Source: an uncultured Actinomycetes bacterium (lineage in GTDB: Bacteria; Actinomycetota; JAICYB01). Taken from it: a stretch of DNA of 64,000 nucleotides. Within the stretch, counting starts at the first letter, position 1. Every line of letters starts with the position of its first letter. The stretch spans positions 30,061 to 94,060 of the forward strand of contig CAZLKN010000001.1 of the NCBI GenBank assembly GCA_964560135.1, given 5' to 3'. The notes beneath the pieces are model-generated. The model saw nothing but the letters and a program-made list of their open reading frames with translations. It made no database searches and was not told the DNA's origin. Of this stretch, positions 30,361-41,099 are shown piece by piece. A program made the translations under genes and the position numbers.

Positions 30361-32835
30361 TCAGGGTTGGATCTGGATGTGGTGTTTCCCGGGATGTACG
30401 GTGACGCTTCCCGTGAAGGCTCCGATGTCCTCGCCGTCCATGATCACGCGGCCCCCGACGAGCCCGTCGAGATGGATCTTCACCCGGCGGTCGGTGTCGA
30501 TGTTCGCGAACAGGGGAGGCGTCACGGGGAGTTCGGCCCGGGCCATGTCGATCCGGAAGGACGACACGTTGCCGATCAGGGCGTCGAACCGGTTGCGGGT
30601 CGCCCCCGGAGCCGCCGGCCGGTCGTAGCCCGTGGTGACTGCGGCGCCCGAGTGCTCGGGCGGCCCGTCGACGGTGGCCACCGGCCCGGCTGCCGTGGGG
30701 GACGTGGTTGCGCGATCGAGCGTGACGTCCACCGTTCCGGTCCACCAGAGATCGCCGAGCGGCGTGTCCCGGCTCGTGCACGCCGCGGCCGAAGGCTCGT
30801 CGTATACGCGGATCCCGCTCACCCAGTAGGCGGCATCGGCTCGCTCCGCGTACAGCGGGCTCCAGTGGACGGGATCCAGGCACGGCATCCGGGCGTAGCT
30901 GACGCGGGCGGGTGAGAAGGGCAGTTTCCGGTTCGCGAGCCAGGAGGCGCCGAGGTGCCATTCGTCGAGGATCGGGAACGTGTAGTGCTCGTAGCCCGCG
31001 AACAGATGCAGCCGGTGCGGCTGCTGGCGGTCGAGGTACCCGCGCGCCTGGGCGGCCACGCCGCTCGCCGGGACCAGCGGATCATTGGTGCCGTGGAGGA
31101 TGACCGTGGGGACGTGGCGGGCGTTGCCGATCAACGGATGTGTCGTGTAGAGGGGACGGTCGTTCTGCGGGGATCCGGGTGCCAGGGGATAGTTCCACTG
31201 CCCGAGAACCGGGGGCGCGGCGACGGCCATCGCGCCTGCGAAGCGGTCCGGGTACAGCATCGATAGGAGATAGGCGCCCCAGCCGCCCATCGAGTGTCCG
31301 GCGACGGAGAGGCGGTCCGGGTCGAGGTGGAGGAACGCGTGGGCGTCGGCGACGGCGTCCAGGACGTCGATCTGGGAATCGCCCACGTACCATCCCGACG
31401 AGCCGCGCCCGCGCGGGGAGATCAGCACGTTCCGGCGATCCTCGCCGAGCTCCCGCACCATGTTCGGTACGTAGTAGGCGGCCTGATGCTCCCCCGGCCC
31501 CCGCCAGTGCAGCCACAACGTCGACGGGTTCGGCAGGATCGGCTCGTAGGTCGTCGGCACGTAGAGGCCGTAGGGCTGGCGGCGGCTCACCGGTCCGGCC
31601 TCGGCGACGGGATGCGGACGGCCGTTGCGCTGCCCGTCGGTCACCCGCGACTCGAAGATCCGGACGTGGTGGCCGGGCCGGATCCGCCAGGTCTCGTGAG
31701 CGCCGGAGGCCAGGGACACCAGGTCGACGACCGTCGAGAACCGGTTCGACAGCCGGGCCACCCCGTCGCCGGACGCGTCGTGGGTCCGGCGCAGCTCGAA
31801 GGCCTGAGTCTCGTCCATCCACGGGCGCAGCGGTTCGACGCCGCCCCGGAAGGCCAGGTTCATCACCCGGGGGCCGGGCTCCGGGGTGACCGGCGCACGC
31901 CATGCCCCGGCCCCCGGCTCCCACAGCCCGGCCCCCGCCCACAGGCGCCAGCGGGTGACCGGCACGTCATCTCGCGTGCGCTCGAGGAGCGCCCGCGGCA
32001 CGGAAGCCTCGACCACACCCCCGAACCCGTCCGGGTTGTCCGGGCCCCCGGCCCCCAGGTCGTCGGTGGCCACGAGGGCGCCGGGCGCGGCCGCACCGTC
32101 GAGCAGCACGCCGTGGCGGGTCAGGGTGAGCACATGGTCCGCTCCCGGGGTGGCCACCCCCGAGGACAGATCCCATCGGCCGGACCCCGTGGCGAGGTCG
32201 TTGTCGGCATCGACGGCGACGGCGACCACCGGTTCGTCGTCGGGGGTGAGGGCGTTCAGCCGGACGAGGAAGAGCACGTCCTCGATGTCGGCGGCCATCC
32301 GCAGCTCGAGGATGTCGGCGGAGCCCTCCGTGGCCCCATCCGGGTAGCGGGAGGCGCCGTAGCGCTCGACACCCTGTTCGCACTCGGTCTCCGGGTGCGA
32401 GAACACTCCGGCGACGTCCACCGCCGGGATGAACTCGCGGCCGAGGGCGGAGTGGAGGGCCTGGTACCTCGGCCAGCCCGCCGCCGACTCGGCCTCGGCG
32501 TTGCGGTCGCGTCGCTCGACCACGCAGGACCGCGCCGTGCCGGTGTCGTCGAGGATGAAGTCCTGGTGGACGAGCTGACCGGCCTGGACGGTGGTCGTGC
32601 CCCCGAGTCCCGTGACGGCTACCCCCTCGTCCCAGTCCGACGGATCGCCGTCGACGGTCTTCGCGGTGGGAGCCAGGAATGGCGCGGGCAGACGTTCGAT
32701 CGAGCCGAGGGGGATGTTCGGTCCGAAGGCCGCGCGGGGGACCTGATCGAGGGTCGAGCGTGTTGTCCCCGCCTGGGCCGGCAGGGTGATCGTCAGTGCG
32801 AGGACACCGACGACGGCGAATGTGCTTCGCTGCAA
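30361..32835 (-). CDS. Secreted multidomain serine hydrolase (alpha/beta-hydrolase / esterase-like core), paralogue A.
   Basis: The protein has a signal peptide (MQRSTFAVVGVLALTITLPAQA), an N-terminal domain containing the HQDFILDDTG motif, an alpha/beta-hydrolase nucleophile elbow (SVAGHSMGGWGAYLL), and a C-terminal beta-rich domain. The start is TTG. The gene is paralogous to 53083-55242. Confidence 0.6.
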   Translation of the reverse strand: MQRSTFAVVGVLALTITLPAQAGTTRSTLDQVPRAAFGPNIPLGSIERLPAPFLAPTAKTVDGDPSDWDEGVAVTGLGGTTTVQAGQLVHQDFILDDTGTARSCVVERRDRNAEAESAAGWPRYQALHSALGREFIPAVDVAGVFSHPETECEQGVERYGASRYPDGATEGSADILELRMAADIEDVLFLVRLNALTPDDEPVVAVAVDADNDLATGSGRWDLSSGVATPGADHVLTLTRHGVLLDGAAAPGALVATDDLGAGGPDNPDGFGGVVEASVPRALLERTRDDVPVTRWRLWAGAGLWEPGAGAWRAPVTPEPGPRVMNLAFRGGVEPLRPWMDETQAFELRRTHDASGDGVARLSNRFSTVVDLVSLASGAHETWRIRPGHHVRIFESRVTDGQRNGRPHPVAEAGPVSRRQPYGLYVPTTYEPILPNPSTLWLHWRGPGEHQAAYYVPNMVRELGEDRRNVLISPRGRGSSGWYVGDSQIDVLDAVADAHAFLHLDPDRLSVAGHSMGGWGAYLLSMLYPDRFAGAMAVAAPPVLGQWNYPLAPGSPQNDRPLYTTHPLIGNARHVPTVILHGTNDPLVPASGVAAQARGYLDRQQPHRLHLFAGYEHYTFPILDEWHLGASWLANRKLPFSPARVSYARMPCLDPVHWSPLYAERADAAYWVSGIRVYDEPSAAACTSRDTPLGDLWWTGTVDVTLDRATTSPTAAGPVATVDGPPEHSGAAVTTGYDRPAAPGATRNRFDALIGNVSSFRIDMARAELPVTPPLFANIDTDRRVKIHLDGLVGGRVIMDGEDIGAFTGSVTVHPGKHHIQIQP

Positions 32836-33254
32836 ACGTTCCCCCCGGTGGGATCCGTGGCCTCCGCTCTCCGCATGGACGGATTCGCCATCCGGGGAGC
32901 GATCCCCTGCCGGAGGTGGTGCGCGACCGACGCGAGCAGCCGCTGGGGGTCCAGGGGACGCACGAGCCGGTCGGGGCTATCGGGGACGGCCCCCGGCGGC
33001 GCCACGAGGATGAGGGGTGTCTCGGCGAGCGAAGGGTGGTCGGTGACCCCCGGCAGCGGCCCGGCTCCGTTGGACGACGCAAGGCGCGTGTCGAGCACGA
33101 TCAGATCGGGGCGCCGCAGATGCGCAACCTCCGCCGCTTCGGATCTCGTCGAGGCCTCGCGGACGTCGTACCCCTCGTCGGCGAGGACGATCCGGTAGAG
33201 CGCCCGGTGGTTGTCGTCGCCGTCGACGAGCAGGATGCGCAGGGGCTCGCTCAT
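32793..33254 (-). CDS. Stand-alone response-regulator receiver protein (CheY-like, no output domain).
   Basis: The sequence MSEPLRILLVDGDDNHRALYRIVLADEGYDV...PDLIVLD carries the receiver domain's acidic pocket and phospho-acceptor Asp. The 3' end overlaps the start of the downstream hydrolase gene by 43 nt. Confidence 0.7.
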   Translation of the reverse strand: MSEPLRILLVDGDDNHRALYRIVLADEGYDVREASTRSEAAEVAHLRRPDLIVLDTRLASSNGAGPLPGVTDHPSLAETPLILVAPPGAVPDSPDRLVRPLDPQRLLASVAHHLRQGIAPRMANPSMRRAEATDPTGGNVCSEAHSPSSVSSH

Positions 33255-33345: not shown

Positions 33346-33999
33346 TCAGACGGTCTCGAGGTCGAGGCTGCGCCACAGGTACCAGGCTGCGGCCGACCTG
33401 AAGGGACGCCAGGGTTCGGCGATCCGCGCGAGTGCCGGGGGTGTCGGTTCGATGCCGTAGGCACGGGCGACCGCATTACGGACTCCGAGGTCGCCCACCG
33501 GCCAGACGTCGGCGCGCCCGAGCTTGAACATCAGGAACATCTCCGCGGTCCAGCGTCCGATGCCGCGGACCCGGACCAGTTCGGCGATCACGTCCTCGTC
33601 GGCGAGCCGGGCGATGCGCTGGAGCCGCAGGTCGCCGGAGGCCACCCGGGTGCCGAGATCGCGGATCGAGGCGGCCTTGGCGGTGGAGATCCCCACGGCG
33701 CGCAGTTCGTCCTCGCCGAGGGCCAGGATGTCCTCGGGACGGACGCGCCGCCCGTCGGTGTAGGCGCTGAGGAACCGCTGCCAGATCGTCTCCGCGGCCT
33801 TGCCCGACAGCTGCTGCCCGACGATCGCCCGGACGAGTGTCGTGAGATGGTCGCCGCGGGCACCGGGCTTCAGCCCGCACCGCCCGACGGCGCCCACGAT
33901 CGTGCGCATCACGGGGTCGGCGGTGCGCAGATGCCGGGCGGCGGCGGCGCGGTCCAAGCGGAGCGGCGTCCCGACAGGGCGCCCGGGCGTCGCGGCCAT
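33346..33999 (-). CDS. DNA-3-methyladenine glycosylase II-like (AlkA / HhH-GPD family).
   Basis: The sequence has the HhH-GPD motif (LVRVRGIGRWTAEMFLMFKLGRADVWPVGDLGVRNA) and the catalytic Asp region. Confidence 0.75.
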   Translation of the reverse strand: MAATPGRPVGTPLRLDRAAAARHLRTADPVMRTIVGAVGRCGLKPGARGDHLTTLVRAIVGQQLSGKAAETIWQRFLSAYTDGRRVRPEDILALGEDELRAVGISTAKAASIRDLGTRVASGDLRLQRIARLADEDVIAELVRVRGIGRWTAEMFLMFKLGRADVWPVGDLGVRNAVARAYGIEPTPPALARIAEPWRPFRSAAAWYLWRSLDLETV

Positions 34000-34143
34000 G
34001 GGCTCACTCTACCGCCGTTGGCGACGCGGCCACCCCTCCTGCGTAGAACGGGCCGGTAGCCGGTCACCCGAACGGGCTATGGCCCCGGCGGAGGTTCTGT
34101 CCGAAGGTTGAACCGGCGGGCCGATACGAGGCGGGAGACGCGC

Positions 34144-35001
34144 ATGGCTTCGAACAGCTCCAATGGGAGCGCGACAGGGACACCACCGGCGACGACGCAG
34201 GCCCTCATGGTCCTGGACGGACGGCGCATCGAGGGGACCCTGCATCTCGACCCGGACAAGCGGCGCTTCTCCGATGCCTGGGAGGCGCTCCTGAACACCC
34301 AGCGATCCTTCGTGCCCGTCACCAACGCCACGATCAACTCGACGGCCTCGCCACGGACCGAGGCTGCAGACTTTCTGCTCGTCGACAAGAAGGAAGTGAG
34401 GGCGGTGGGCCCGCTCGGGGAGCGTGTCGATGCGTCCTCCGGGCCGATCCGGCGGACCGAGCTCGAGCGGGTACCGGTGGTGCTGATGCTGGAGGGTCTC
34501 CGCGTGGCGGGCGTGGCGCACCTGGATCCGAACCGCGGACGGTTCTCCGACACCTGGGAGGCGCTGCAGCGGGACCGGCGGCCGTTCGTGATCCTGACGG
34601 ATGCCACGGCGACCTACCACGACGAATCTCAGACCGTGGCGATGCAGGTCATGATGATCGGGAAGGACGAGATCCAGGCCGTCTACCCGTTGGAGGTATC
34701 CGACGGCGTCACGCCTGCTCGCCGTCTCCAGCGCGAGTCGATGCAGGCCAGATTGATACTCGACGGACTCCAGGTTGAGGGAACACTGCACGTCGAGCAG
34801 CATCCTGTGGCCCGCTACGCGCGATTCTCGGATCTCTGGGAGGCGCTGATGCGGGACCGGCGGAGCTTCCTGCCGGTCACGGACGCCACGATGTGGACGG
34901 GGGATGGAGGCTCGAAGCTCGCCGTCGCCCCTCTGCTGGTCGTGGAGAAGGGCGACATCCGCGCGGCCCTGCCTGTTGGAGTGAGCTCGACGACGTCGTA
35001 G
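34144..35001 (+). CDS. Hypothetical protein made of three tandem copies of an approximately 90-aa domain of unknown function.
   Basis: Each internal repeat has the pattern hhLDG-h-EGT-H-h-(D)-RFSD-WEAL-R-F-PVTDAT...K-I-A-PL. The ATG at 34144 follows a GGGAG RBS. The longer ORF begins with TTG at 34108. Confidence 0.6.
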   Translation: MASNSSNGSATGTPPATTQALMVLDGRRIEGTLHLDPDKRRFSDAWEALLNTQRSFVPVTNATINSTASPRTEAADFLLVDKKEVRAVGPLGERVDASSGPIRRTELERVPVVLMLEGLRVAGVAHLDPNRGRFSDTWEALQRDRRPFVILTDATATYHDESQTVAMQVMMIGKDEIQAVYPLEVSDGVTPARRLQRESMQARLILDGLQVEGTLHVEQHPVARYARFSDLWEALMRDRRSFLPVTDATMWTGDGGSKLAVAPLLVVEKGDIRAALPVGVSSTTS

Positions 35002-35100
35002 TCACGAAAGCGTGCTCCCCGGATCCTCCTCGTGTTTTTGCTTGCCACCGGAGCGGGTAGGCACCGACCCAGACGGGTCGAACAAGGAGGAGGATCCGAC

Positions 35101-35382
35101 ATGGCCAGAGACCGTGAGGTTATCCGCGAGGAACGTGTGGATCGTGGTGGTCCGCCCGGGTGGGGGCCGGGGCCCATCATCGGGGCGGTCCTGGCGGCGA
35201 TCCTGGTCGTCGTGCTGCTCCTGTTCGTGTTCGGTGCTCTGGGCACCGGGACGGGCGGCGGAGACGGGGACACGCAGATCGACACCCCGGACCAGATCGA
35301 GATCGATCCGGGCGGCGGCGGAGACGGGGGTGGGACCGACGGCGGCGGGACCGACGGCGGTGGGACCGACGGGGGTGGCTAG
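35101..35382 (+). CDS. Small single-TM protein with an acidic Gly-rich C-terminal repeat tail (GGGTD x3).
   Basis: A very strong RBS (AAGGAGGAGGA, then 6 nt, then ATG) precedes the gene. The N-terminus is basic, one transmembrane helix follows (IIGAVLAAILVVVLLLFVFGAL), and the tail is GTGTGGGDGDTQIDTPDQIEIDPGGGGDGGGTDGGGTDGGGTDGGG. Confidence 0.55.
   Translation: MARDREVIREERVDRGGPPGWGPGPIIGAVLAAILVVVLLLFVFGALGTGTGGGDGDTQIDTPDQIEIDPGGGGDGGGTDGGGTDGGGTDGGG
35329..35379. repeat. 15-nt tandem repeat (ggtgggaccgacggc x3) encoding the GGGTD repeats.
   Basis: The repeat is directly visible at the 3' end of the small membrane-protein gene. Confidence 0.7.
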
Positions 35383-35471: not shown

Positions 35472-37268
35472 ATGCGGACGCTGCGCACGGTCGGGGTCGT
35501 CGTCGGGCTGGGGGCGTTGCTCCTGGGGCTCGGCCCGGCCCCCGCGTCAACGGCCGCCGACGACCAGCTCGAGGCAGGCTTCGCGGTGCGTTCCATCCTG
35601 CCGGACCCCGAGATCTACGACGAGGTCTGGCACACGGGCCGCCGGCGGCCGACGGGCGTGCTGGACGGGAACTGGGCTCGGGCGGTGGTGCTCGAGCAGG
35701 GCGATCGGCGGCTCGGGATCGTGGCCCTGGATCTGCTCGGCCTGTTCTACGACGACGTGGTCGAGATCCGAGAAGCCGTGCGCGCCGAGCTCGGCGCCGG
35801 CACCCAGGTGATCGTGGCATCGACCCATTCGCATGCCACCGTGGACACCCTCGGGATCTACGGCCCCGACGAGGTCACCTCGGGACTGCACGAGGAATAT
35901 CAGGAATTTGTCCGGACGCAGGCGGCGGAGGCGGTGATCGCCGCCGCGGACGCCGTCGAGCCCGTGCGCGCGCGCTTCGCGTCGCGTCAGGCCCCCGACG
36001 GCCTGAACGAGTACGACATCAACCGGTACCCGGGCTCCTTCGACGACGGGGTGAACGCGATCTCCTTCGAACGCACCGACGGGAGCGCGGTGGGTACCCT
36101 CGTGAACTGGGCCAGCCATCCGGAGCTGGTCGACCCACGGTCCTCGTCGGATCCCGACATCCCGGAGGGGATCCGCGGCGCGATCCTGTCCAGCGACTAC
36201 GTCCACACCCTGCGCGAGACCGTCGAGGGTGGCGGGGGCGGGACGGCGGTGTTCGTCAACGGACCCGTGGGGGCCGTGACGGGGCTCGCGATGCAGCCGA
36301 CCGACCCGGCTACCGGTGAGGTGTTCACGGAGCGCCGGTCGGTGGCCAAGGCCTACCACGTGGGCCGGACGGTGGGGGCAACGGCCCTCGAGGCGCTGGG
36401 GGACGGGTTCGTCGTGGACAACCCGCAGCTCGAGGTGGATTCGGTCGTCTTCGACCTGCGCATCGACAATCCGTTCCTGCTCGCCCTCAAGGCCACGGGA
36501 GTCGTGGGACGCGCGACCTACGAGGCGGGCGTGGAGGTGCCACTCGGCCGCCACGTGCGAACCGAGATGGTGCGTGTGGGCTTGGGTCCGGCGGAGTTCC
36601 TCACGGTCCCTGGCGAGCTGCACCCGGACGTGTACACCGGCGGCTACCTGCCGCGCTCCGAGCGCGCGAACCCCGACGTGCCGAGGGAGCGGGCGATCCG
36701 TCCCCAGATGTCGGGGGAGATCAGGTTCCTCATCGGTCTGGGACAGGACGAGCTCGGGTACTTCGTGTCGGCCACCGACTTCGTCGGGCCCTCCACCGTC
36801 TTCCCCGTCTACGGCCGGGGCGTCGACCGGAACGGACGCAGCCACTACCAGGAGACGCTCTCGCTCGGACGCGACACCGCCCGCACCATCGGACAGTTCG
36901 CGTCGCTCCTGCTCGGCCAGGAACCGGAGGCCGACTACGTGGCGTACCCCGGCGGTTTCCTCGACGCCGACGGCGTGCCCTCCTACCGGGGTGACCACTC
37001 GGGTGACGTCCGGGGGATCTGGATCGACACCTCGGGCAGCGGACGCTACGAGTTCGGCGGCGACGCCCAGGTGGTCACGCCGCTGCCCGCCGGTGTTCCC
37101 GCCGCCTACGGGTTCCTGGACGCCCGGGGTCGGGATATGGGGGCCTCACCGTCCACGGCCGCCCGCGGGGTGTGGGCGGACGGCGACGGCGATGGCGCCT
37201 TCGATCCGCTCCGCGACCCCCACCTGTTCTTCGACAGCTACCACGTGGGCAAGGGCGAGATCCCGTAG
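35472..37268 (+). CDS. Secreted neutral/alkaline ceramidase-family hydrolase.
   Basis: There is a signal peptide (MRTLRTVGVVVGLGALLLGLGPAPASTAA). The sequence IVALDLLGLF...VIVASTHSHATVDTLGIYG resembles the neutral ceramidase N-terminal catalytic region. A GGGAGGG RBS precedes the ATG. Confidence 0.55.
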   Translation: MRTLRTVGVVVGLGALLLGLGPAPASTAADDQLEAGFAVRSILPDPEIYDEVWHTGRRRPTGVLDGNWARAVVLEQGDRRLGIVALDLLGLFYDDVVEIREAVRAELGAGTQVIVASTHSHATVDTLGIYGPDEVTSGLHEEYQEFVRTQAAEAVIAAADAVEPVRARFASRQAPDGLNEYDINRYPGSFDDGVNAISFERTDGSAVGTLVNWASHPELVDPRSSSDPDIPEGIRGAILSSDYVHTLRETVEGGGGGTAVFVNGPVGAVTGLAMQPTDPATGEVFTERRSVAKAYHVGRTVGATALEALGDGFVVDNPQLEVDSVVFDLRIDNPFLLALKATGVVGRATYEAGVEVPLGRHVRTEMVRVGLGPAEFLTVPGELHPDVYTGGYLPRSERANPDVPRERAIRPQMSGEIRFLIGLGQDELGYFVSATDFVGPSTVFPVYGRGVDRNGRSHYQETLSLGRDTARTIGQFASLLLGQEPEADYVAYPGGFLDADGVPSYRGDHSGDVRGIWIDTSGSGRYEFGGDAQVVTPLPAGVPAAYGFLDARGRDMGASPSTAARGVWADGDGDGAFDPLRDPHLFFDSYHVGKGEIP

Positions 37269-38373: not shown

Positions 38374-39651
38374 GTGGATAGGAAGGCGTTGTCGGCGCTG
38401 CCGTCGGCGGTATTGACGGAGATGGTGGATCAGCTCTACGCGCTGATCTGCCGCCTGGTCGTGCTGCTGATCACGGTGGCCGATGTGTGCCGGGAGCGCG
38501 GTGTGCATCTGGAGGATCAGGTGCCGTCGATGGAGGACTGGCTGCGGATCCGTCTTGGGGTGCGGCGGTCGACGGCGCGGGAGTACGTGCGGATGGGTCG
38601 GGCGGCTTCCGGGTTGCCGGCGACGTCTGCGGCGTTGGCCGGCGGCCTGCTGTCGGTCGACCAGTTCAGTGCCGTGTCCCGGTATGCGACGCCGGAGACC
38701 GATGAGGAGCTGGCGCGTACGTCGGTTGGGGTGCCCGTGACGGTCCTGGACCGGCGGGCCCGCCGTGCGCGGGACCTCTCGGCAGAGGACGCGGACGCGT
38801 CGCATCGGGCGCGCCGGGTACGGATCCGTGAGGATCGTGAGCGTGGCGAGTACCACCTTTGGGCGAGGTTGCCGGGAGCCGAGGGTGCGGTGGTGAGGAA
38901 GGCTCTCGAGCTGGAGGCCGACCGGATGGAGCCTGATCCGGTGACGGGTGTGTTCGCACCGTACGAGATGCGGTTGGCGGATGCCCTGGTGGGGATGGCC
39001 CGGGACCGGTTGGGTGGGCAGGCGAAGAGCTCCCCGGAGCGGGCGACGGTGGTCGTGCACGTGGATGCCGCCGCTCTCGCGTCGGGTCAGGGGTATGCGG
39101 AGGTCCAAGGCGGTCCCCCGATCGCGATCGAGACCGCGAAGCGTCTGTTGTGTGATGCGAACGTCCGCACCCTCTTGGAGTCGGAGGGTCGGGCGGTGGG
39201 GATCGGCCGGCGGAGCCGGAGCGTGCCACCGGCGATTGAGCAGATCATCTGGCATCGGGATGGGGGCTGCGTGTTCCTGGGCTGCGGGCGGAGGCTGTGG
39301 GTGCAGGTGCACCACCTGAAGGAATGGGGGTGCGGGGGTCCCACGGATGCCCACAATCTGGTGCTGGTCTGCCCGCTGTGTCACCAGCTCGTGCACGAGG
39401 GCGGGTGGCGGATCGAGGGCAACCCGTACGAGGAGTTGATCTTCCGGGCGCCGGACGGCCGCGAATGGCGGACGGGTCCGGCGGGCCTTCATGCCGAAAC
39501 CCGTGCCCGGTTCTTCGAGGAAGATCCGATCTCCGAAAGCCCTGAGGCGGAGCCGGCTGAGCTCCCACCTGCGGCTCGGGGGCCGGCCGAAGACTCGGGA
39601 ACGATGGAACTCCCGGATGAGCCTGCGCCCCCCTACGACGACACCTCCTGA
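38374..39651 (+). CDS. HNH endonuclease with an N-terminal DUF222 domain (actinobacterial '13E12-repeat' family; putative selfish element).
   Basis: The HNH region is WHRDGGCVFLGCGRRLWVQVHHLKEW...HNLVLVCPLCHQLVHEGGW. The N-terminus has a DUF222-like architecture. The start is GTG. Confidence 0.75.
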   Translation: MDRKALSALPSAVLTEMVDQLYALICRLVVLLITVADVCRERGVHLEDQVPSMEDWLRIRLGVRRSTAREYVRMGRAASGLPATSAALAGGLLSVDQFSAVSRYATPETDEELARTSVGVPVTVLDRRARRARDLSAEDADASHRARRVRIREDRERGEYHLWARLPGAEGAVVRKALELEADRMEPDPVTGVFAPYEMRLADALVGMARDRLGGQAKSSPERATVVVHVDAAALASGQGYAEVQGGPPIAIETAKRLLCDANVRTLLESEGRAVGIGRRSRSVPPAIEQIIWHRDGGCVFLGCGRRLWVQVHHLKEWGCGGPTDAHNLVLVCPLCHQLVHEGGWRIEGNPYEELIFRAPDGREWRTGPAGLHAETRARFFEEDPISESPEAEPAELPPAARGPAEDSGTMELPDEPAPPYDDTS

Positions 39652-40265: not shown

Positions 40266-41099
40266 TCAGCGCACGATGCGTGACATGCGACGGTCGGCCA
40301 GGACCTTGCCCCCGGTCTGACACCGTGGACAGTACGTGACCTCGTAGCTCTCGTAGGACACCCGCCGCAGGTCCTCGCCGCAGGCCGGGCACGGGTGCCC
40401 CCACCGGCGGTGGACGGTGAAGTGGTCGCCGATCTTCGTGGGCAGGCCCCCGGAGCGTTTCCGCTCGGCCTCCAGCGCCTCGTCCAGGACGCGCCGGGTC
40501 TCGGCCAGCAGCCGCTCCCGATCCTCCGGGCCCAGCGACTTCAGGGTCGCGTACGGGGAGATCGCGGCGGCGTGGAGGATGTCGTCGACGTAACCGCGGC
40601 CGATACCGGCGACGGTGCGCTGGTCGCGCAGGATCGTGTGGACGCGACGGGTGTCCTCCCCGTCGCGCACCAGCGCTGCGAAGGCCTCCGAGTCCGGCTC
40701 CGGGCCGAGCTTGGTCAGCGGCCCATCGTCGCCGGAGGCCAGCACCCACCAGCCGGCCTTACGCTCCGTGCCGAACTCCTTCACGAGCACCGAGGGCCTG
40801 CCGGCGAAGCGCAGACGCACCACGCCGAACTTCGGGCGGGTGCGCTTGGGTGGGTCCTCGACATCGATCCGGCCCCCTTGCGAGAGATGGACGAGCAGCC
40901 GCGGCCCGGAGAAGTCCCAGACCAGGTACTTGCCGCGCCGACCCACACCGGCGAGCTCGCGTCCGTGCAGCGACTCCGGCGCCGGATCGTAGGTCTTGAG
41001 GGCGGAGAACTGGAGGGGGTCGCTCCCTGCGAACACGGCTCCGCGCAGGAGCGCGTCGAGCCGTTCGGCCAGGGCCTGCACCTCGGGGAGCTCGGGCAC
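40266..41099 (-). CDS. Formamidopyrimidine-DNA glycosylase / endonuclease VIII family (Fpg/Nei).
   Basis: The canonical N-terminus MPELPEV is present, with the catalytic Pro2 and Glu3, an H2TH region, and a C-terminal zinc finger (CPACGEDL...CPRCQ). Confidence 0.85.

Follow-up and report, generated by a model that had tools for sequence, protein, structure and literature searches.

A receiver-less protein of three tandem DUF6812 domains with a predicted Sm-like fold in an uncultured actinomycete

Sm-fold proteins join edge-to-edge into rings, and in Sm proteins the nucleotide pocket is formed by the L3 and b4-b5 loops. How one domain, present in varying copies per chain, can make up rings of the same size is known from the sliding clamps: PCNA is built from three chains of two domains each and the bacterial beta-clamp from two chains of three, so that either ring contains six domains. 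The closest known system to the protein described here is the DUF6812 family, seen mostly as REC-DUF6812 "CheY-like" regulators, the C-terminal domains of which share the pattern G...RFSDxWE...R.F.PVTDA...K...P with its repeats. In contrast to these regulators, the protein, which is encoded in a 64-kb stretch of DNA from an uncultured Actinomycetes bacterium (the window, 64,000 nt), has no receiver and carries three copies of the domain per chain, an architecture found in 6 of 301 representative clusters. Compared to the ring-forming, RNA-binding Sm, LSm and Hfq proteins, it is a tandem fusion of three domains that lack the N-terminal helix, possess an extra helix of 9-10 residues in L3 and display no significant sequence or profile similarity to these proteins; ring formation and RNA binding are hypothetical here. 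The likeness to the sliding clamps is an architectural analogy only, i.e., one domain in varying copies per chain, all fitting one six-domain ring: the clamps are unrelated to DUF6812 in fold and function, and the DUF6812 ring is hypothetical.

The triple-DUF6812 gene and its relatives

The open frame of the triple-DUF6812 gene extends from 34108 or 34144 to 35001 on the forward strand (Table 1), and its likely start is ATG 34144, which was also chosen by gene callers on three metagenome contigs (L001-L003) near-identical to the window (0-2 mismatches). The G+C content at its codon positions, 0.68/0.48/0.85, fits that typical of coding DNA in this window (70% G+C), and the encoded protein is soluble, without signal peptide or transmembrane segment. 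The sequence-only reading of this region had described three tandem repeats of about 90 aa, which the alignment bore out: the repeats follow each other with a period of ~91 aa at pairwise identities of 38-43%, the positions L, G, G, H, RFSD, WEAL, R, F, T, AT, K, A and P are invariant across all three, and the motif stands essentially as it had been written. That reading had, on the other hand, considered the repeat not assignable to any named family, which was not the case: the model of Pfam family DUF6812 (PF20660) matched three separate stretches of the protein at E 7.9e-25, its score of 87.1 bits exceeding the cut-off of 27.1, and the triplication is therefore far beyond chance. Judged by this match, the repeat is a catalogued Pfam family without described function. 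The novelty claimed for it, which was to be given up if a single repeat matched a well-characterized family, is thus lost at the level of the fold (see below) but kept at the level of the family. Pfam detected DUF6812 only, and a receiver domain (REC, PF00072) with its phospho-acceptor Asp is absent from the protein. Moreover, searches of NCBIfam, PADLOC and PHROGs returned zero matches for it and hence no link to a defense system or phage, and no second DUF6812 gene was found elsewhere in the 64-kb window.

Table 1. Features of the triple-DUF6812 region. Positions are nucleotides of the window unless residues are indicated.
Feature	Position	Strand	Basis and remarks
Stand-alone receiver protein, 153 aa	32793-33254	-	Pfam PF00072, E 8e-09, profile positions 1-76 of 111 only
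HhH-GPD DNA glycosylase	33346-33999	-	Pfam PF00730, E 2.6e-15; divergent, 144 nt from triple gene
Shine-Dalgarno-like GGGAG of triple-DUF6812 gene	34133-34137	+	Sequence reading; 6 nt ahead of ATG 34144
Triple-DUF6812 gene, 285 aa	34144-35001	+	ORF list, Pfam PF20660, same gene call on L001-L003
Repeat 1, residues 14-93	34183-34422	+	Repeat alignment
Repeat 2, residues 106-184	34459-34695	+	Repeat alignment
Repeat 3, residues 195-279	34726-34980	+	Repeat alignment; 4-5-residue insertion before RFSD
Repeat 1, predicted secondary structure	Residues: strands 16-24, 27-35, 56-66, 72-81, 87-90; helix 42-50		AlphaFold2 model
Repeat 2, predicted secondary structure	Residues: strands 108-116, 119-127, 148-158, 164-173, 177-182; helix 134-143		AlphaFold2 model
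Repeat 3, predicted secondary structure	Residues: strands 197-206, 209-218, 242-252, 258-268, 272-277; helix 228-237		AlphaFold2 model
Ribosome-binding site AAGGAGGAGGA of mini ORF	35084-35094	+	Sequence reading; 6-7 nt ahead of ATG
Orphan mini ORF, 93 aa	35101-35382	+	ORF list, gene call
Predicted transmembrane helix of mini ORF, residues ~25-47	35173-35241	+	Hydropathy; one strongly hydrophobic segment
15-nt tandem DNA repeat, 3.7 copies, encoding (GGGTD)n	35323-35378	+	Tandem Repeats Finder, 90% matches, score 91
Secreted-type protein, 598 aa, distant member of the neutral/alkaline ceramidase superfamily	35472-37268	+	Profile against PDB
Fpg/Nei DNA glycosylase	40266-41099	-	ORF; Pfam assignments on L001

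An exhaustive HMMER search with a single-repeat profile against 1.84 billion representative proteins (E<=1e-3) retrieved only 301 representatives of DUF6812, which makes it a small family, and nearly all of its members come from metagenomes. The triple architecture occurs in six of these clusters, all of which were known already from a word-indexed search; that search had found the window protein itself and six orthologues (35-47% identity), the latter all on short metagenome contigs. Beyond the triples, the word-indexed search yielded a further 27 proteins, ~200-250 aa long and almost all composed of an N-terminal receiver and one DUF6812 domain. Most relatives are thus response regulators of ~200-230 aa from uncultured Actinomycetota that end in one DUF6812 domain. 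Many of the members retrieved by HMMER are likewise REC fusions, and many others stand alone, with lengths of 80-120 aa; among the latter are low-G+C-looking sequences with the looser motif R[LV]SDxxN...F[IL]P[VL]T[DE]A...NK. Besides the fusions, the family thus comprises single domains that stand alone (~85-120 aa) and tandem doubles (~170-220 aa); two DUF6812 stretches were present in about 15 of the 150 matches listed, and those inspected were full tandem doubles. A search of the genome collection with an alignment of three sequences brought no further triple, and all that it detected were single-domain genes with a REC fusion, in nine Actinomycetota MAGs; the frames that were readable at these nine single-domain loci were REC-DUF6812. 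Metagenome contigs searched with a degenerate DNA pattern of repeat 3 gave chance matches, and an HMM screen of the loci listed left one weak fragment. The insertion of 4-5 residues just before RFSD in repeat 3 is common to all seven triple proteins; therefore, the triplication is older than their divergence and the repeat positions are orthologous across the proteins.

Predicted fold of the DUF6812 repeat

The AlphaFold2 model computed from the seven orthologues reached a mean pLDDT of 83.8 and a pTM of 0.81, with poorly predicted parts only at the termini and in the two inter-repeat linkers. In the model, this pTM would imply a defined packing of the three domains despite flexible linkers. 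Each repeat follows the order b1-b2-helix-b3-b4-b5, and the five-stranded, strongly bent antiparallel beta-sheet by which the Sm fold is recognized is found in the predicted repeat. Each DUF6812 domain is thus predicted to form a small bent beta-barrel of the Sm/LSm type, in line with the earlier guess of a small beta-barrel; sensing of a small molecule by the repeat, which had been suggested along with it, found no support, as there were no family matches to that effect. Taken together, we regard the membership in DUF6812 and the Sm-like fold as very probable.

The predicted domain departs from known Sm proteins in its helices. DSSP analysis of the model revealed that the helix before b1 is absent in all three repeats and that the sole helix of each repeat, 9-10 residues long, sits in loop L3 between b2 and b3. 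This L3 helix bears the most conserved residues of the family, the near-invariant R-F-S-D-x-W-E...R, and by topology the near-invariant Lys of DUF6812 falls into the b4-b5 loop (L5). At the position of this Lys the Sm2 motif has Arg-Gly. Furthermore, the invariant Gly in b2 of DUF6812 has its counterpart in a hallmark residue of Sm profiles (PMC3710371). LSm-fold matches include Edc3, NAA38, Gemin6/7 and LSm14. At the level of sequence, a Pfam scan of the window protein gave no LSM or Hfq match and profile searches of PDB sequences returned no Sm protein at E<=10. When a profile of 30 repeats was aligned by hhalign with three manually entered archaeal SmAP sequences, the probability was 0.7%, and the sole local alignment to these sequences covered the equivalent b3-b5 segment. 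The model therefore reads best as an Sm-like fold with a remodeled L3, a predicted resemblance at the level of the fold and not by demonstrable sequence homology.

Genes neighboring the triple-DUF6812 gene

Directly upstream of the triple gene, on the other strand, lies an HhH-GPD DNA glycosylase; the orphan receiver protein that had been noted on that strand is present, but one gene further away. This receiver was considered as the "missing" REC of a split REC-DUF6812 protein and rejected, as it shares only generic identity of 26-28% with the fused receivers. A weak PADLOC match of the receiver to SduA/DUF4263 (E 6.6e-05) was also observed. The Fpg/Nei glycosylase of the window is a clear orthologue of that at the homologue locus L005, with a near-identical N-terminus. 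The region was also scanned for Rfam families, promoters of the sigma-70 type and intrinsic terminators, all with negative results.

The mini ORF downstream of the triple gene is probably a real gene, because it has a strong ribosome-binding site, a gene call and a predicted transmembrane helix; its G+C at the codon positions is 0.79/0.56/0.82. The earlier description of a 93-aa protein with a strong ribosome-binding site, one transmembrane helix and a Gly-rich tail encoded by 15-nt repeats was accurate except for the N-terminus, which is not net basic but of mixed charge (5 Arg and 5 Asp/Glu). Its 45 C-terminal residues include 21 Gly, 9 Asp and 7 Thr, and zero Lys or Arg. The suggestion that this tail binds Ca2+ was not upheld: the RTX Ca2+-binding repeat (GGxGxDxUx, PF00353) was rejected since there was no Pfam or NCBIfam match and the period of the tail is 5 residues and not 9. 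The copy number of the 15-nt repeat encoding GGGTD was identical in the window and L001-L003. No homologue was detected for the mini ORF without its repeat tail, a negative result that is weak because the exact protein is missing from the protein collection, and Pfam, NCBIfam, PADLOC and PHROGs contained no match. The mini ORF is best treated as a lineage-specific orphan and not as a conserved partner of the triple gene.

The gene that follows encodes a 598-aa protein, the most likely start of which is ATG 35472 with GGGAGGG 5 nt upstream. As a single sequence it gave no Pfam, NCBIfam or PDB match, i.e., it falls below every Pfam and NCBIfam threshold. The family profile built from 15 sequences, however, matched the neutral/alkaline ceramidase structures 2zws_A (E 3.7e-19) and 4wgk_A (E 3.3e-16) over the catalytic N-terminal domain, with the invariant His, Glu and Tyr present, and distant homologues of the protein carry the ceramidase family PF04734. 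The view of this gene as ceramidase-like therefore holds at the level of the superfamily, and secretion of its product, proposed at the same time, agrees with the signal-peptide-like N-terminus MRTLRTVGVVVGLGALLLGLGPAPASTA. In contrast to its position in the window, the family has no linkage to DUF6812 elsewhere: its three orthologues (59-67% identity), located on three other contigs, have unrelated neighbors.

REC-DUF6812 genes are found in heterogeneous housekeeping neighborhoods, which include genes for a UvrD-like helicase, UvrC/RapZ, RimM, ClpXP, a thiolase, FhaA, a methyltransferase and ABC transporters. In the loci examined, no histidine kinase adjoins a REC-DUF6812 gene, while one locus has a PAS kinase four genes away; therefore, REC-DUF6812 proteins look like orphan regulators.

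Possible function of the triple-DUF6812 protein

Based on the predicted fold and the domain architectures, we propose that DUF6812 might act as an effector module in oligomeric form. Chains of one, two and three domains would all be compatible with a six-domain, Hfq-like ring (6x1, 3x2 and 2x3, respectively), to which the window protein, lacking a receiver, would contribute a half-ring that is assembled constitutively and dimerizes. The conserved polar and aromatic residues of L3, together with the conserved Lys of the b4-b5 loop, would constitute a putative ligand site. Since the conserved residues fall into the two loops that form the pocket in Sm proteins, binding of single-stranded RNA would be the most likely activity; single-stranded RNA would thus come first among the candidate ligands, with single-stranded DNA or a nucleotide-like ligand being less likely, and the role might be in post-transcriptional control. 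We favor this reading only tentatively and give it slightly less than an even chance: the protein would be a triple, single-chain form of an Sm-like effector without receiver, probably as part of a six-domain ring binding RNA or another ligand. RNA binding specifically is doubtful: the helix inserted into L3 remodels precisely the RNA-binding loop of Sm proteins, several LSm-fold domains (Edc3, NAA38, Gemin6/7) make protein-protein contacts instead, the DUF6812 domains are mildly acidic (pI mostly 4.5-6.2), and the gene neighborhoods of REC-DUF6812 contain no RNA-related signal. The most far-reaching version, in which the DUF6812 proteins of Actinomycetota would form an unrecognized bacterial Sm-like branch that binds RNA, phosphorylation would switch ring assembly or RNA binding in the REC forms, and the triple protein would be a dimerizing half-ring of a constitutive, pseudo-hexameric RNA chaperone, appears improbable.

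Part of the same evidence would also suit a module that does not bind nucleic acids at all. DUF6812 might be an Sm-fold domain for protein-protein contacts or for sensing of a small ligand, which in the REC form docks in a phosphorylation-dependent manner, and the triple protein a scaffold or decoy with three docking sites. The altered canonical RNA pocket and the acidic domains are in line with this explanation, as are the many protein-binding proteins among the LSm-fold matches (Edc3, NAA38, Gemin7, LSm14) and the heterogeneous neighborhoods, which are typical for orphan regulators acting on proteins. However, a conserved candidate partner is found beside none of the family members, the residues conserved in the domain (Arg, Phe, Trp, Ser and Asp) are typical of nucleotide pockets, and the occurrence of single, double and triple forms suggests self-assembly over hetero-docking, so that we consider such a docking role rather unlikely.

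The neighbors of the triple gene suggest two further explanations, both of which are less probable still. The triple protein might be an accessory of base-excision repair or of the oxidative-stress response that binds damaged or single-stranded nucleic acid or regulates the divergent glycosylase genes. Indeed, glycosylases of base-excision repair recur beside triple genes: Fpg/Nei is directly upstream and divergent in L004 (P0005; Fpg/Nei, triple, convergent glyoxalase-family gene, nitroreductase) and in L005 (P0003; HhH-GPD, Fpg/Nei, triple, glyoxalase-family gene) and one gene off in L025 (P0006; Fpg/Nei, nitroreductase, triple, convergent gene of unknown function), HhH-GPD is near the triple gene in L005 and directly upstream of it in the window, and the Fpg orthologue of the window is located 5 kb from the triple gene. 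Genes of the nitroreductase and glyoxalase families recur there as well, the nitroreductase of L025 overlapping the start of the triple gene by 4 nt. These are, however, only four or five loci on contigs of 3-4 kb from related uncultured lineages, for which inherited synteny explains the pattern equally well as, and is not separable from, a functional linkage. Moreover, L023 (P0002; unknown gene, triple, ferrochelatase) has neither a glycosylase nor a glyoxalase-family gene, the aligned intergenic regions of five triple-gene loci share no regulatory motif beyond a -10 element, which belongs to the upstream gene, and REC-DUF6812 genes lack such an association overall, save for one beside UvrC and one beside a UvrD-like helicase. 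A repair function is thus very unlikely. Even less can be said for a single operon in which the triple protein would function together with the Gly-rich mini membrane protein and the ceramidase-like secreted enzyme, e.g., as sensor, anchor and hydrolase, as the earlier reading had implied. The co-orientation of the three genes with gaps of 99 nt (triple gene to mini ORF) and 89 nt (mini ORF to ceramidase-like gene), the Shine-Dalgarno-like site of each gene and the lack of a detected terminator-like site between the genes would agree with it. In none of the four informative homologue loci does a small ORF or a ceramidase-like gene lie downstream of the triple gene; the homologues precede convergent genes instead (glyoxalase-family, ferrochelatase or unknown), no homologue of the mini ORF was detected and the loci examined lack it, and the ceramidase-like orthologues are found in other surroundings. 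The three-gene unit is hence extremely unlikely, and the mini ORF and the ceramidase-like gene are neighbors of the triple gene by lineage-specific accident and not parts of one system.

Literature searches found no paper on DUF6812 or PF20660 and nothing on Sm-like outputs of response regulators. Three aspects appear to be undescribed in the searchable literature: DUF6812 as an Sm-like domain with a helix insertion in L3, DUF6812 as an output domain of response regulators in uncultured Actinomycetota, and its single, double and triple forms, of which the triple is very rare (6/301 clusters). The present gain is smaller than what the proposed effector ring would entail: a protein regarded as unassignable now has a Pfam family and a predicted class of fold, and an apparent operon is accidental. 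If the Sm-like fold, the ring and the RNA binding proposed here were true, REC-DUF6812 proteins would represent a new type of response-regulator output, namely an Sm-type RNA-binding module under phosphorylation control, and the chains of one, two and three DUF6812 domains would be a clean natural example of the fusion of ring subunits. To our knowledge, no recognizable Hfq is present in Actinomycetota, and DUF6812 would then be a candidate for the role that Hfq has elsewhere.

Base-excision-repair glycosylase genes beside the triple-DUF6812 gene

Genes for HhH-GPD or Fpg/Nei glycosylases of base-excision repair repeatedly adjoin triple-DUF6812 genes, the window and three of the four related metagenome contigs all showing this arrangement, and nitroreductase or glyoxalase-family genes are likewise frequent neighbors in these loci. 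The window's Fpg orthologue lies shifted 5 kb downstream, and the intervening block includes a DUF222-HNH gene, which may mark the rearrangement that parted Fpg from the triple-DUF6812 gene. Genes of the DUF222-HNH type are commonly present in multiple copies in actinobacterial genomes.

The divergent HhH-GPD gene directly upstream is preceded by a TANNNT hexamer, the position of which is kept at equivalent sites in L004 and L005. This conserved position and the proximity to the ATG suggest that the glycosylase gene is transcribed as a leaderless mRNA.

Features of the window and of related contigs
Feature	Location	Strand	Remark
S9/esterase-like hydrolase gene	window 30361-32835		824 aa
Stand-alone receiver protein gene	window 32793-33254	-	partial REC profile match
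HhH-GPD glycosylase gene	window 33346-33999	-	base-excision repair
TANNNT hexamer (TAGAGT)	window 34006-34011	-	6 nt before the ATG start codon of the HhH-GPD gene
Ceramidase-like gene	window 35472-37268	+	598 aa, secreted-type
DUF222 + HNH endonuclease gene	window 38374-39651	+	between aldo-keto reductase and GNAT/Fpg genes
Fpg/Nei glycosylase gene (Fpg orthologue)	window 40266-41099	-	base-excision repair
HhH-GPD, Fpg/Nei glycosylase genes	L004:1-657; L005:3-1399; L025:93-926		base-excision repair
Truncated gene upstream of triple homologue P0002	L023:3-86	-	product's N-terminus MDPAPRPGGLGRRRSAGVGRAPRILLLE
887-aa frame adjoining a REC-DUF6812 gene	L008:320-2980	-	crude ORF call

Truncated and merged frames in related contigs

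The last residues of the sequence listed for the truncated L023 product look like the beginning of a receiver domain, the fragment being too short for assignment. The L008 frame, as crudely called, comprises UvrC domains together with the N- and C-terminal domains of RapZ, and represents either a UvrC-RapZ fusion or two neighboring genes joined by the ORF finder.

Flanking receiver and ceramidase-like proteins

The match of the stand-alone receiver protein to the 111-position REC profile extends over positions 1-76 only and, as judged by eye, Ala and Arg replace the usual conserved Thr/Ser and Lys (LILVAPP, LVRPLDP). The 3' end of its gene overlaps the start of the hydrolase gene by 43 nt, and PADLOC returned a weak match of the receiver protein to SduA/DUF4263 (E 6.6e-05).

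The ceramidase-like protein belongs to a clade of about 25 actinobacterial proteins without a Pfam match of its own, which a family profile connects with the neutral ceramidase structures 2zws and 4wgk. The invariance of His119/His121/His216/Glu218 and Tyr430/459 suggests that a metal site is retained.
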